Part shown: positions 5,503-47,958 of the stretch, piece after piece
Numbering within the stretch: the stretch's first letter is position 1
Layout of the letters: each line of letters starts with the position of its first letter
Assembly (NCBI GenBank): GCA_951406725.2
Contig: OX597828.1
Coordinates: 67,890,001-67,954,000 of the forward strand
DNA length: 64,000 bases
From: Octopus vulgaris
Taxonomy: Eukaryota
Direction: 5' to 3'
The notes under the pieces: generated by a model
Seen by the model: only the letters and a program-made list of their open reading frames with translations
Databases searched by the model: none
What the model was told of the DNA's origin: nothing
Program-made: the position numbers and the translations under genes

Positions 5503-5834
5503 GTCCTTCTGCAACGGCGCTTGCAGTGGTTTGGCCATGCATGTAGACGTCCGGTGGGTGAACTGAGCCGTGATGTCCTTCTCCCAACTCCACTTCCCAA
5601 CTGGCGGAAACGCGCAGGTGGGCAGCTGTTACGACGATCAAGGAGGACCTCTCCGTGCTCACGGGTCCGCAGGTGGACGGCCTGTGCGGATGGAACCGTG
5701 ACTGGTTCGCTATCTCCAGTGAACTGGCGCAGGACCGTCGTGCGTGGGCTGCCATGGTTCGAGATGCCCTGAGGGTGCTGGAAGAAGCCGACTCAACCCG
5801 CCCAGGGTGAATGTTGCCGCAAGTACAAGTAAGT
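5503..5834 (+). mobile_element. 5'-truncated RTE-clade LINE 3' end
   Basis: LQWFGHACRR..ELAQDRRAWAAMV..*; tail CAAGTACAAGTAAGT; AAACAG TSD at 5497-5502 and 5835-5840. Confidence 0.8.
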
Positions 5835-7105
5835 AAACAGTTGGAATCGTCTGAGCATGTTTGCAACGCTTTTGCACTCTCCTCTCCTATCTGCTAAACC
5901 CACACAGTTCCATCTTACATCTAAAACTCCATTACAATCCCCCACAAACACTAAAGAGTGGGACGTTCCCAGAAAGGTTTCCAGACGTCTGAAGAAATCT
6001 GGTCGTCCGGCCCCTGTTGTGGCATAGACGGCAACCAGCCTGGAAGTATGTCCTTTGCTGCCTATCACGTCCAGGACCAACGACTTACCTTCCGGATCCA
6101 GGAGGATCGTCCTTATTGCAAGATCCAGATTTTTCCGGACGATCACGGCGACTCCACCTCCCACTTCCGGACGACTTGGAGATACGTACACCTCATAGTC
6201 ACCGAAAATGGGTTGGAAGTCCCGTGATTCGGAAATTCTGGTTTCACTAATGGCCACCACGTCGTTGAGCAAGTGACCCCGCTTCCAAGGCGATCCCAGG
6301 CCACGTACATTCACGCTGCCTATTCTGTACACGACCATGATGTCGGAAAATAAAAGAAAAGAAAAGGAAAACTTACTTGGTTTCGTTTGGAAGGGCGGAT
6401 TCCCCGTCCCTCATGTTGGCTTGTGCTTTTTCCAACAGTAAATCACCAAAAGTTCTCCTGGTGATATTCTCTCAAAAATCTCCGATTTCCCGTGGGAACT
6501 GGGATTTTAAGTGTGTGTATGTGTTTTGTGCTGTTTGAATGATTTGTATGCGTGCAGGTAGGGAGATTGTAGGTGTGACAAAATCGTCCGCTGTAATATT
6601 TGTGTGTTTTATTATTCACTTCATTAATTCATTGGTTTTTTTTTTGTTTATTGCCAAGAAGTTTGTAATGTTAGTCTCTTTAATTTGCGTTTGTTGTTGT
6701 TATGGTTGTGGTTGTTGCGGTAGTGGTGGTTGTGATTGTTGTTGTTGTGGTTGTGTGTGTGGGGGGGTGGCTTATGTTTCAGATTTTAGAGGTGGTGGTG
6801 TCGATGCAGTGTTTATTTCAGGTGTAACTGGTTTTCTTGGTTTTGAGTTTTTTTTTTTTTTGTTCATACTTCTTGTGTGGATGAGGATTGTTGTTATTTG
6901 TTCATATATTTGTTTTTATTTCTGTCTCTTTTCCGTTTTCAACTTCCACTCCTCATCGCAATCCGACTCTCCACCCGTATTGTTCACCCGCTCCGCATCG
7001 GGAAGTGGAACATCTTCGGGCGCTGAGAACTGTTTTGAGGAAACTCGGGATTGGCATGTCACGGCTGAATCTGTTGACAGTGATGGTGCTTCTGCTGTTG
7101 TCGCT

Positions 7106-25632: not shown

Positions 25633-25693
<61 letters not shown>

Positions 25694-25761
25694 TTATTAG
25701 AGACAAAACCACTATTTTGCAAAACAAACAAGGAAAGACTTAATCAATACATAACATTTTT

Positions 25762-26980
25762 AGTAAAGAAGAAGTTGAAATTAATGTAATACCTTCCAAA
25801 TCTCATCAAACAGTCAAGTGTCGAGGCATTCATATTGCTGCAAATGTGTCTCATGAAAAGAATTTAACTATTTATTATCCACCTAAAACAATAGAAATCA
25901 AGACTGATGAACCCTTTCTTGAAGGTCGCAAAGGTATTTTGCATTGTAAGGCAATAAATGGATATCCAGAAAAGTACAGCTACAGGTGGGATCCAAGTAA
26001 CAAGACCTCACAAAATTTAACACTTTCTCAACTCAATCGAACACACAATAATGAGGTTTACACTTGTTATGCTTCTAACAAGTGCAGTAAAAGAGAATTA
26101 CATAAAAAACATTGGATCAATGTAGAATATCCACCTGATATTACTGCACCAGAGAATGTGACATTATTTGAGGATCAAGCATCCATTATAAACTGTTCTG
26201 CAAAAGGAAACCCTACCCCAGAAGTGTGGTTGGAGGATAAAAATCGAAATTTCCTTTCAAATTCTATATTAACTTTTAATCGTAAAAATATCAGTGATGT
26301 TTTCTGCACTGCCATTGCAAAGAGCGAAAGGAATGGAAATTTGACAGCTAAAAAGGAAATTAATATCCTGTTCAAATATCCTCCTCAAGTAAACATTCAT
26401 ATTTCAAATGAGCCAAATAACACTAAGAATACTTATAATAAAGAAGTATTACCTATAAACAATCCTTCCTTCAATAATACTGGTACATGGGAGTGTCATG
26501 TAATCAATGATGATTTTCGTGTGATTAAGTCATCAAACTACAAAATTCCAGTGAAAGCCATGTTCAGTTCAGTATCAAATGGTCCCAAAAAAAAAATGTT
26601 TCAAATGAGGAAACTGTAATTTTAAAACAGTGTTTTTATTCGCATCCAAAATCTGATGTTAAATGGCAGAAAAATGAGGAATCAATTGACTCAAACAAAT
26701 ATTTAATAACTGATTATTTATCAAATGAGTTTCCTTTCAAAGGAGCTGTACTAGTTTAAAGATAGAAGACATCAAAGATGATGATATTGATACTTATACC
26801 TTAATAGTGGAAAATTCCATAGGAAAAGAAACTATTGTTTTTACTTTGAGATATAAAAAAAAGCAAGAAATCCCCATGGGAATAATTATTGGTTGCACTG
26901 TCGGAATTGTATTATTATTAATAATAATGGGTCTTCTTACTTATATATTCTACAAAAGAAGAGATTGGAAGTCCACCTGA
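25762..26980 (+). pseudogene. Intronless, 5'-truncated Ig-superfamily type I membrane protein (about 4-5 Ig domains, TM helix, short tail) with 2 frameshifts
   Basis: Open from 25762 (..VKCRGIH..YYPP); Ig motifs LHCKAINGYP..W..YTCYASN, INCSAKGNPTPEVW..VFC and TGTWECHV. After the frameshift at about 26590: QCFYSHPKSDVKW. After the frameshift at about 26745: DTYTLIVENSIG, TM IIIGCTVGIVLLLIIMGLLTYIFY, KRRDWKST* (TGA 26978-26980). Many N-glycosylation sequons. Confidence 0.85.
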
Positions 26981-27015
26981 AGATTGTCGATCAAGACAAG
27001 AAACAATTGTAGTGG
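26973..27015 (+). ncRNA. Minimal type-I hammerhead ribozyme, canonical core
   Basis: CCAC-CUGAAGA-UUGUC(GAUCAA)GACAA-GAAA-CAAUUG-UA-GUGG; predicted GUA cleavage after 27011. Confidence 0.85.
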
Positions 27016-27186
27016 CGGTTTTTTTGACTATTTATTAAAATTTTATGTATTGATTAAGTCTTTCCTTGTTTGTTTTGCAAAATAGTGGTTTTGTCTCTAA
27101 TAATATTTTATAATATTTTACTATAAAATTGGATTTAATCCTAAATCTGATTTTTTCCCTGTAAATTTGGATTTATTCCCTAATAT

Positions 27187-27241
<55 letters not shown>

Positions 27242-28470: not shown

Positions 28471-30842
28471 TGTTGTATTTGGGGATGGTCATGTTGCCAG
28501 ATTAGCCAATAAAAACACACACACTATATATTTGGTGTTAATTTGCTTCAGCTATATTTTATTTTTTACATTAATCATATTTCGGCCAGAGTTCTTTCGT
28601 CACACTTCTGTGACCTCATCGGTGGTCCTTTGCTTTCTCTTTTCTTATTTGTGTGTCTTTCCTTACTAACGATCAGCCATTTTGTATTCCTATTGTATGT
28701 GTCTTTATTTGTGAATGCGTATACCCCTATGTGTGTCTATGTTTAGTAAATGCGTGTGTGTGTGTGGAGGGGTGCCTGTATTATCTGTATCCCCTGTTTA
28801 TACACGTTCGTTTAATTTTTTATTTATTTTGTTCATGTGTTTATACCTACTTATTTTTTTATTCTTTCTTTTATTGTATTTAATTTAATTTAATTTTGTT
28901 GACGTATATAGTTATTTAATTCCATTTGTTTATCTGTCTATTGTATTATATTTTGTTCATATTGTTATCAGTTTATGGGGATCTTATTCTGTCATTTGTT
29001 GTGGTGTGTTGGGTGTGTGTGCTAGTGTTCCATTCCAGTTTCCTATTCAGGCTAGGTTTATCTTCTATTATGTGTGTAGCTTCTGTAATTTATTTAAGCG
29101 TTGCATCTGTTCTATGCGTGGACAAGATTTTAACTTCTATGTTGTTGAGTGAGCCCCGTGTTCCTGCTCGGCGTGCTGGTATAGAACCGATGAGCTGTTC
29201 TCTTCCTTAAGTTCCCTCCAATGCTTATATACCCGCTCTGCTATGCTCCATGCTGTTTCCCCTACGCGCGTCGTTGTCTTGTTTCTGCACTGTCCCTCTG
29301 TATATCTTATACTATAGACTACATTTCTTGCTTTACAGTTTGTTTGTGGACTAAATCTATATACAATACAGTTCCTATCAGTACAGGGGGTTCTACTAAA
29401 AGGGTAGGTTCTACCGAAATAGGGATTTGATAGGGTTGCCTGGCCTTTCAACAACCTTAATCCTAAGCATAAGTTTGTCTAGGGCCCTTCTAAAGTGGTA
29501 CGCCAGTTCACCTCTAGGGGTGGTGTCGACGAACATGACACTCTGGTATTTGTGGCTATCATACCATGAGTTGGCCTTCCCTATTTTCTTCTTAGTCCTT
29601 TCAATAGTGTTCCATGACTTGCTCCTACAGAGTGGGCAGATCCCATTCCTATCTTTACATAAGATAGTATCAAATTTCTTCATGGCTCCTTTGTATACTC
29701 TGATCCTTTCTTTATGGCTGTAACCTGAGAACTGCATGCGGTGAACGAAATGTTGTATGTGTCTCTTTAACTCTGTAGGGTCGCACATGCGGGACACATT
29801 TCACATTACTGTGACGAGGTCTGCCATCAATATATTGAATTTGGCATTGTCCGCGATAGCTAAGTTCCGGTGGATCAGGTATTTGGAGGCCATAGGTTTC
29901 GCATAGTGTGAATGAAGGATTCGGATTTTATTATTCTCAGTTTCCAGCCAGAGTTCTGTATCTAGTACTGGTAGTCTATGGTTAGGGTGTTTTGTAGAGT
30001 AGTCTATCGTGACCTTAATACTCTGGTGGATGGAATTAGCTATTTTCTGGATGCTCTCCATAGTATTAGTTTCTATTTCTATTTCAAGAGTACTCTTGGG
30101 GTGCCTTTACCACTACGTTGATATCATCGACATAGCGAGAGTACATGTTCACGAGTATGGAGTTCTGTGTCAGACGTTCCTTAAGCCTTCTGTCCCACCA
30201 TACCATGAAAAGGTTGGCTACATCACCGGCAATACTAACGCCGAGGCTGCCCCCTCGTCCTGGGCGTATATTTTGTTGTTAAACTTAAACGTGTGGCCTT
30301 TTAGGGCAACTCCTATACTAACTCCTAGTGCATGTGCGATCATTTTCTTTACCTGATAATCATTTGAGGGGGTCCGTATGGCTCTGGTCCATCCGCTCTA
30401 TCTCTCTAAAGGGGTCTTCCTAGCCATAGAAGTAATTATAGGTGTGTCTACCTCTTAAACGTATACTGGGGCAGAAACTTCTAAGGTCGTGTTTATCTAG
30501 ATATTCATTGTCATATGTCAGTCGAAGTAGGAGGCCCAGTTCCTCTGTGTTGACATTGCGGAACTCCACTTCGCTCTCGTTGATCATCTCTACGTACTTC
30601 TCACCGCAAAATCCACGTCCATCGATGGGTATAGGGATACCGCATTCATGCTACCTTCTATACATCCTGTCAGGTCGCAGGTGTGGTTACAGTCGTTGAT
30701 CCTGCTGAGGAGATTTTCCGTGCTGTCACAAACATCAGGTGACATCCGGATTATGGAGCGTATGAACCATTGAGAGGAAGTAGGAGATCCTGTAGTTGCC
30801 AGCGATATTCGCTCCACAGACTGGTCTTGTTGGTGCTGTTGG
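28467..30842 (-). mobile_element. Penelope-like retroelement (RT + GIY-YIG), degenerate
   Basis: SMNAVSLYPSM, RYVDDIN (about 30120), LPVLDTELW, GIY-YIG-like NVVYSIRY..VGET..ER..H; 3' repeat with hammerhead; bounded by (TA)n. Confidence 0.88.
28586..28625 (-). ncRNA. Minimal hammerhead motif (U4C core) in the PLE 3' repeat
   Basis: CCA-CCGAUGA-G-GUCACA(GAAG)UGUGAC-GAAA-GAAC-UC-UGG, same strand as and downstream of the PLE ORF. Confidence 0.7.
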
Positions 30843-46668: not shown

Positions 46669-47958
46669 CGAGGGACGTTCAATAAGTAATGCTTCTGACC
46701 CACTTGCAGTTGTTTGATCTAGCTGAAATTTTGCATGTGCAATCATTTATATCTCTATAGAGTAAGTGGCAAATTACAGCTCTGAATTAATTGTGGTTTC
46801 TGATTTACAGGTGTTTGAACCGAGTCAAGTGTGAAATGGAGCCTGTTGAGTGTCGAGCAGTGATCCGGTTTTTGTATTTGAAAGGACGCACACCACGGGA
46901 GACTTTTGATGAAATGAAAGTAACTTATGGTGATGATGCCCCATCATATGACCTTGTAAAACGCTGGCATCGTGAATTCAAACATGGTCGGAACTCTGTG
47001 GAAACAGCTCCCAGATCTGGTCGCCCCTTCTGACTTTGATGAGGCATCTGTCCGTCAAGTTGAGGCTGCCATTTTGGAAGATCGACGCATAATTATTCGC
47101 CAAATAGCCCATGAGGTCAAGATTAGTACCGGGTCTGTGGAAACTATCATTCATGACCATTTGCATATGCAAAAGGTGTCTGCCAGATGGATTCCCAGGT
47201 TGCTCACGCCTTTCCAGAAGCAAGAACGCGTCGAGTGCTCGAGGGTGAATTTGGAGACGTGCCAAGAAGATGAGTCAAAATTTTTCAAAAGACTGATTAC
47301 ACAGGATGAAACCTTGGTCTATCACGATGATCCAGAGACCAAAGCCCAGTCAATGCAGTGGAAGCACCGTGACTCACCCCCTCCAAAGAAGGCAAGGGTG
47401 CAGCCCTCCGCTGGCAAGGTCATGCTCACAGTCTTCTGGGACCAGGACGGAGTAGTGATGACAGATTTCTTGGCAAAGGGTACCACAATTGCAGGAGCCT
47501 ATTATGCTTCACTTTTGAGGAAATTAAGAGAAGTTATCAAAATCAAGAGGCGGGGCAAGATCAGCAAAGGCATCCTCCTCCTGCAGGACAACGCTCCGGT
47601 CCACAACTCGCTTGTCGCCAGATCAGAAGCACAGGCGTATGGCTATGAACTCCTCCCCCATCCCCCTACTTTCCTGACCTTGCACCCTCTGATTTTCACC
47701 TCTTCCCAGTCATGAAGTTGTTTTTGAAAGGAAAGCGTTTCCCAGATGATGCAGCCTTGATTTCTGAAGTCACGTTCAGGTTGGAGGACCAAGCTGGGGT
47801 CTTCTACAAAAACGGTCTCCAGAGCTGCATCAAACAATGGGAGAAATGCGTAACTCTGGGTGGTTCCTATGTAGAAAAAGACTAATAACTGTGCCAAGTT
47901 TCGTTGCTCTACTGCTATGGGAAGTGGGTCAGGAGCTTTACTTATTGAACGCCCCTCG
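46669..47958 (+). mobile_element. Full-length mariner (Tc1/mariner, DDD) transposon, 1290 bp
   Basis: TIRs CGAGGGACGTTCAATAAGTAA / TTACTTATTGAACGCCCCTCG; TA TSD. Confidence 0.95.
46836..47885 (+). pseudogene. Mariner transposase, frameshifted
   Basis: MEPVECRAVIRFL.., WIPRLL, TQDET, LQDNAPVH, PDLAPSDF; frameshifts at about 47030 and 47667. Confidence 0.92.

Follow-up and report, generated by a model that had tools for sequence, protein, structure and literature searches.

The closest described parallel to the locus analysed here is exon-trapping, or splice-mediated 5' transduction, by SVA elements, of which MAST2-SVA_F1 and STK40-pt_SVA_D6 are examples (PMC6139936; here and below, comparisons refer to those parts of the cited sources that treat the system named). 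There, splicing joins a host exon to a retrotransposon-internal acceptor, and the product is then retrotransposed; its host part stops at the 3' end of an exon, and the source element may be extinct. A second parallel is Pen3a-NRPS of Adineta vaga, which represents Penelope-mediated mobilisation of a host gene (PMC3846280): pLTR sequences suffice to mobilise the gene in trans, the cargo comes from a multigene family and is framed by inverted and direct pLTRs, and the NRPS gene retains all of its introns, with an antisense or unspliced template being proposed. This is the sole printed case of host-gene capture by a Penelope-like element (PLE) that we found; moreover, our literature search, which covered mostly open-access publications and their main texts, returned no report of PLE splice-acceptor capture of host exons. 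LTR-mediated retroposition also yields partial, intronless host mRNAs framed by retroelement ends, with joints at microsimilarities anywhere in the mRNA (PMC5131818). Finally, canonical PLEs of the C-terminal-EN type have a pLTR intron ending beside hammerhead helix I and a palindromic helix III (PMC8557442, PMC4209133, PMC2377424), together with a tail extension, inverted arms, (TA)n targets, and RT followed by GIY-YIG (PMC8557442, PMC4209133, PMC2377424, PMC11167929); D. virilis Penelope is one element in which the intron ends in this place (PMC4209133, PMC2377424).

Here, we describe an octopus event that works like SVA exon-trap transduction but is neither an SVA nor an L1 product. It lies in a 64-kb stretch of DNA (G000:C15:67890001-67954000, with G000 denoting the assembly), which we refer to as the window. 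As in SVA, the host part ends at an exon 3' end and sits on a retrotransposon-internal acceptor, the chimera appears to have been retrotransposed, and the source element may be extinct; unlike in SVA, a hammerhead-bearing PLE pLTR serves as carrier, the acceptor is that of an intron within the element itself, mobilisation likely relied on the PLE RT/GIY-YIG rather than on L1, a poly(A) tail is absent, and no captured octopus gene became an expanded subfamily (PMC6139936). As in Adineta, an inverted and a direct pLTR frame a cargo from a multigene family and pLTR sequences would suffice for mobilisation in trans, but the octopus cargo has had all its introns removed, is truncated at its 5' end and meets the pLTR at a splice site (PMC3846280), which points to a spliced sense template. 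By contrast with LTR-mediated retroposition (PMC5131818), the 3' joints in octopus are at splice sites. These findings suggest that, in a cephalopod, PLEs give rise to processed gene copies and that splicing guides the process.

The insertion has the layout of a PLE, i.e. an inverted, tail-less 5' arm, a 3' tail and a microsatellite target (Table 1). A first-pass annotation of this DNA had described a perfect 67-bp inverted copy and (TA)n flanks, and both descriptions hold: 25688-25754 is the reverse complement of 27043-27109 at 67/67 positions, and both ends of the insertion sit in TA runs, the right one following (ATT)n from about 27189. The arm continues past one mismatch, so that the Ig homology begins at 25761 and not, as annotated, at the edge of the 67-bp copy (25755); it begins in mid-exon. 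Among the fetched family loci, 97/122 tail-less arms run into TA repeats at the same site, within a span of 4 nt. Because this end is near-fixed, the 67-bp copy is the ordinary left end of the PLE family. The hallmarks of an L1-type retrocopy, a poly(A) tail and a target-site duplication, are not seen, the ends being pLTR arms inside TA runs, within which a target-site duplication is not readable.

Table 1. Features of the insertion and its flanks, in positions of the window
Feature	Position	Strand	Remark
(TA)25 target microsatellite, left flank	25638..25687	.	
Tail-less pLTR arm in inverted orientation, reverse complement of 27037-27109; usual left end of the family	25688..25760	-	72/73 identical
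3' part of parent exon A, truncated 5' in mid-exon	25761..25876	+	86-99% to parent exons; GT next in 5/5 parents compared
Exon B, Ig domain	25877..26128	+	AG before and GT after in 5/5 parents compared
Exon C, Ig domain	26129..26377	+	AG before and GT after in 5/5 parents compared
Exon D, Ig domain, with 78-nt in-frame deletion at 26420/26421	26378..26551	+	GC-AG intron next in parents
Exon E, I-set domain, with 1-nt deletions near 26591 and 26743	26552..26858	+	
Transmembrane (TM) exon, ends exactly at host splice donor (GAG/GT)	26859..26963	+	GT next at this base in 7/7 parent TM exons
pLTR exon 2, first base directly after the element's own intron acceptor (TTTTAG/ATTGG in intron-retaining copies)	26964..27109	+	
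Minimal type-I hammerhead with palindromic stem III, predicted cut after 27011	26973..27015	+	Descriptor match
pLTR 'tail' extension, ends in (ATT)n	27110..27200	+	
(TA)n target microsatellite, right flank	27200..27241	.	

By its exon structure, the cargo (25761-26963) is a processed copy from an intron-containing family of octopus multi-Ig receptors. Pfam detected Ig_3/I-set domains and a TM-juxtamembrane segment, and each exon of the cargo has its match in intron-containing genes, which are clustered on C5 (27.46-29.32 Mb) and paired on C28 and on C31; the intron-containing parent that the first-pass annotation had sought is thus available as a family. In the parents compared (five per exon, and seven for the TM exon), the exon joins of the window copy coincide with GT-AG or GC-AG boundaries, and thus five introns were precisely removed, with ~41 kb of the C5 28.8 Mb parent being condensed to 1.2 kb. 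The copy is frameshifted by the two 1-nt deletions, and the 78-nt deletion takes out the first Cys of the third Ig domain, both as previously annotated. With two frameshifts, one deletion and no signal peptide, it is likely a dead pseudogene.

The copy carries 22 substitutions that are absent from the 5-7 parents compared. RNA editing was rejected as their source since only three are A>G and nine are G>A. No parent in G000 matches the copy over all exons; moreover, 9/22 private substitutions fall in pieces of transcript-like contigs that match the window without substitution, and one such piece has an intact frame at 26743. Because the private bases occur in these contigs and a full match in G000 is missing, the true parent allele is likely present in the population but not in the assembly. 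The copy is probably young, consistent with the identity of its pLTR to those of elements that carry RT. Among the contigs listed from 4 of 20 runs, which indicate presence only, none crossed 26963/26964 and none had the 78-nt deletion.

It had been proposed that the insertion is a self-propagating, non-autonomous PLE with an Ig receptor, amplifying and diversifying short-tailed receptors. In principle, re-copying is possible, since the pLTR is intact and the insertion retains both termini of the family. However, no second intronless Ig copy was present among the best matches scored in G000 (55, 46 and 8), where every non-self Ig match was an exon-sized piece of an intron-containing gene, and the Ig-pLTR junction occurred once in the junction search. 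With a single intronless copy found in G000 by these searches, we conclude that this is not a mobile receptor family there. Nor does the copy itself, lacking a signal peptide and carrying the lesions listed above, fit this proposal. Moreover, the named relatives are Octopus multi-Ig receptors, mostly of 700-1220 aa, with long tails rich in tyrosine motifs, and transcript-like contigs run on from the TM exon into the tail exon; therefore, neither the short tail nor the hammerhead stop codon is more than a by-product. We consider the proposal highly improbable. The part worth following is the recurring splice capture described below, and the Ig copy is not shown to diversify receptors.

The parental genes on C5:27.46-29.32 Mb, C28 and C31 (proteins P0121-P0128) form a divergent, apparently octopus-restricted multi-Ig receptor cluster; their tails contain repeated tyrosine motifs, and their exons show signs of a mosaic ancestry. 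They are a candidate immune or recognition receptor family, on which we found no paper in the literature search.

The sequence downstream of the cargo (26964-27200) is a high-copy repeat in G000. The pLTRs of two elements (L143 and L145) have 0 mismatches to that of the window in 230 nt, and these elements contain an ORF with what we take, from motif reading, to be RT-like and C-terminal GIY-YIG-like motifs. Some of the atlas look-alikes, at 0.94-0.96, belong to clusters in which RVT_1 (13-17%) or GIY-YIG (11%) occurs among the members, and they are leads from one source; Pfam and PDB sequence searches with the PLE ORF returned nothing relevant. Judged by this identity, the flanks are the pLTR of a young RT/GIY-YIG PLE. 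The PLE attribution in the first-pass annotation is thereby upheld, an autonomous element with the same repeat, as had been sought, is found, and mobilisation in trans, also proposed there, is the likely route. Between RT and endonuclease, the PLE ORF (L143:1085-2857, L145:4600-6042) has a long Asn-rich stretch that resembles the N-rich inserts of Adineta Penelope elements (PMC3846280).

G000 contains ~860 exact-match pLTR arms. In the family, the pLTR has a GT-AG spliceosomal intron (GACTT/GTAAGT ... TTTTAG/ATTGG), which is about 1.8 kb in two elements (L144 and L145) and 955-1842 nt across five distinct copies, and genomic copies occur in spliced and unspliced form. The arms were sorted by the bases ahead of the acceptor: 309 carry TAG, and 34/34 of those read are intron-retaining; 538 have A, C or T (A or C in 130); six have VAG, and seven have BG, for which a shorter pattern was used. 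The acceptor was read in all 13 VAG/BG matches, in 30 TAG-class loci and in part of the A/C/T class, from the first 100 places of 130 and of 538, in part; the A/C/T arms read mostly represent precise splicing from either of two donors that are separated by 4 nt. The spliced element form is also present in run X1. In these respects, the octopus family differs from canonical PLEs in that many genomic copies are precisely spliced and, compared with the 75-bp intron of D. virilis Penelope, in its far longer intron. The precisely spliced element copies together with the fully spliced host cargo indicate that spliced sense RNA was used, which bears on the question of whether the PLE template is antisense, unspliced or spliced RNA.

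At the junction, the TM exon closes with base 26963, and base 26964 is the first past the element acceptor. Because a host donor (GAG/GT) here meets the element's own acceptor (TTTTAG/ATTGG), the Ig-pLTR joint is, on sequence grounds, most likely a splice product. The same acceptor base carries foreign sequence in 13 elements, a count from which duplicates, inverted arms and three element-derived rows were set aside. Recognisable host genes are found in 4/13 of these joints, i.e. the IgSF gene of the window, Vps54, PNPT1 and CEP104, and the other nine were traced to no exon end. These nine, in which foreign sequence ends exactly at the acceptor, are L015, L089, L092, L096, L111, L150, L151, L154 and L156; the foreign part of L151 resembles the start of a mariner transposase. 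L015 and L096 were considered as one donor with two acceptors, which was rejected: the foreign end is common, but the upstream parts differ.

The PNPT1 capture (L153/L176, C18:34.52 Mb) is a processed 5' piece in which six exons spread across 38 kb of C4 are joined (L153), the last one ending GTTG/GTAAGT exactly at the joint. The frame of this piece changes at the first exon join, which may reflect a skipped exon; motif scans failed to locate the exon that follows in PNPT1. The Vps54 capture (L090/L177, G000:C6:133.36 Mb), named by homologue search with no Pfam match, is a processed 5' piece with parent exons 1 and 2 joined, and the exons at its joint are absent from the G000 assembly. The Vps54 gene at G000:C11:56.10-56.36 Mb is split by a gap, with the first exons on the minus strand and the last exons on the plus strand, likely as a result of a scaffolding inversion; the exons for residues 95-240 were not found in this region. 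A processed 5' CEP104 piece is located at the same acceptor at C3:34.04 Mb (L269/L307), and its parent was not located. Lastly, in run X15, which comes from another sample than G000 and provides transcript-like contigs crossing exon junctions, a 43-nt exon is joined to the pLTR acceptor; in G000, this exon lies upstream of the TDH exons on C19 and ends GAG/GTAAGT.

Altogether, in 3/3 checkable cases (Ig, PNPT1 and TDH), the host sequence stops at the end of an exon, with GT next in the parent, and the host exon 3' end on an element acceptor is the arrangement of SVA-like exon-trapping. From exon lengths, the chance of 3/3 exon-end joints is ~5e-6, as a rough figure; the pattern searches set the element side of the joints but not the host side, and for the window copy neither side was set. 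These observations bear on a template switch: at a short microhomology, as happens in LTR-mediated retroposition, the element RT would have left the pLTR RNA and continued on a cellular mRNA. AG is common to the host and acceptor sides of the Ig and TDH joints, and thus either alone would also fit such a switch; jump-like captures also occur at other positions in the family (L120/L121, L309/L310 and L069). Against this, the PNPT1 joint shares only a G and the CEP104 joint no base, so that microhomology is no explanation for them, and exon ends are joined at the exact acceptor base in all three checkable cases. We regard a template switch as improbable.

In a second type of capture (L120/L121, L202, L309, L310, L069:6250-7245 and L072), the foreign sequence is off the acceptor and is joined upstream of pLTR exon 1 or straight to the tail. 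One unit of this type is present at three places on C14 (73.58, 73.81 and 74.54 Mb).

We favour, as moderately probable, that the window holds a single broken processed Ig copy whose TM exon was trapped via splicing in cis by an intronic PLE and then retrotransposed. An intron-retaining element would sit in the post-TM intron of a parent Ig gene, and the donor of the host TM exon would be spliced in cis to the element acceptor, giving a host-exon/pLTR chimeric RNA; the allele with this donor insertion, which is absent from the assembly, would be rare or purged. The RT/endonuclease of the element would then start reverse transcription in the pLTR tail, and the chimeric RNA would be copied into a TA run, with 5' truncation and formation of the inverted arm during integration. 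That the tail is the start site is likely by analogy with another PLE, for which internal initiation in the tail has been shown and hammerhead cleavage is not needed (PMC11167929). In the C28 parents, relatives of the PLE family occupy both the intron that follows the TM exon and the one after it, and one of these relatives has an intact sister acceptor in sense. These intronic relatives, together with the absence of the true Ig parent allele from G000, are the reasons for favouring trapping in cis.

An acceptor-bearing copy of the subfamily itself was not found in the fully assembled post-TM introns (C5 29.3 Mb, C5 28.8 Mb and both C28 genes). Similarly, no cis donor element was found in the 10-50 kb fetched downstream of the Ig parents or in 118 kb, with one gap, downstream of the PNPT1 exon, and no young-family cis donor in 90 kb downstream of the TDH exon, for which the RNA is from another sample. 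Since no donor was found in the parent regions checked, splicing in trans has to be weighed beside splicing in cis: a PLE RNA beginning inside the intron or after its donor would have a free 3' splice site that is joined to the donors of host pre-mRNAs, and the chimera would be retrotransposed with no intronic insertion required. Two acceptor-bearing copies (L139 and L141) without a donor motif within 10 kb agree with this route. Moreover, some of the captures come from housekeeping genes that are likely essential, and selection should remove a trap from their introns. Rare, purged insertion alleles would, however, equally leave donors absent, and the Ig parent allele is itself missing from G000. 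Also, among the junctions listed, at least one foreign junction was found for X15 but none for X1 (with 134 further loose ends), and the pLTR subfamily mix does not differ between the 13 chimeras and 30 intron-retaining copies (Fisher p = 0.17 and 0.18). We consider trans-splicing possible but doubtful here. Equally tentative is its general form, in which PLE RNA would be a natural 3' trans-splicing acceptor that grabs unrelated host donors and tags any expressed gene for retrotransposition; if true, octopus would have a general splice-guided route to retrogenes and exon shuffling for which no insertion near the gene is needed. The fixed junction makes cis versus trans splicing directly testable and is a simple search string for counting captures in genomes and RNA data.

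For the pLTR at the Ig joint, the sequence also predicts self-cleavage by a minimal type-I hammerhead. It consists of stem I (CCAC and GTGG), the core CTGAAGA (26977-26983), stem II (TTGTC and GACAA), GAAA and a palindromic stem III. Searched against both window strands, the minimal-hammerhead descriptor matches at this place only; of 100 dinucleotide-shuffled controls, four contained any match (mean, 0.05 matches per shuffle). The monomer is no more stable than shuffles (z = +0.30); two copies cofold as a dimer with an 8-bp intermolecular stem III at -22.0 kcal/mol versus -5.4 kcal/mol for the monomer hammerhead fold. In copies of a sister subfamily, stem III changes from CAATTG to CGATCG, preserving the palindrome. 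Rfam returned no hammerhead among 97 matches at E<=1. Minimal PLE hammerheads have been described as dimer-dependent and weak in vitro (PMC4209133). The descriptor match, shuffle control and dimer cofold bear out the complete minimal hammerhead of the first-pass annotation, and its stop codon in the core is also confirmed: TGA at 26978-26980 terminates the TM frame. This is merely the first in-frame stop past the joint. In layout, the unit is distinct from a non-LTR retrozyme. Like non-LTR retrozymes, the octopus unit is non-autonomous, has a type-I hammerhead and is related to PLE pLTRs; however, retrozymes are tandem non-coding repeats with a hammerhead per unit, whereas the octopus unit has one hammerhead and host cargo (bioRxiv 10.64898/2026.07.22.740005).

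Elsewhere in the window, 46960-47712 contains a fragment of a mariner-type transposase (PF01359) and 5796-6410, on the minus strand, an endonuclease fragment of a LINE-like element (PF03372). A decayed ORF series at 29140-30106, also on the minus strand and with no family match, resembles another PLE.
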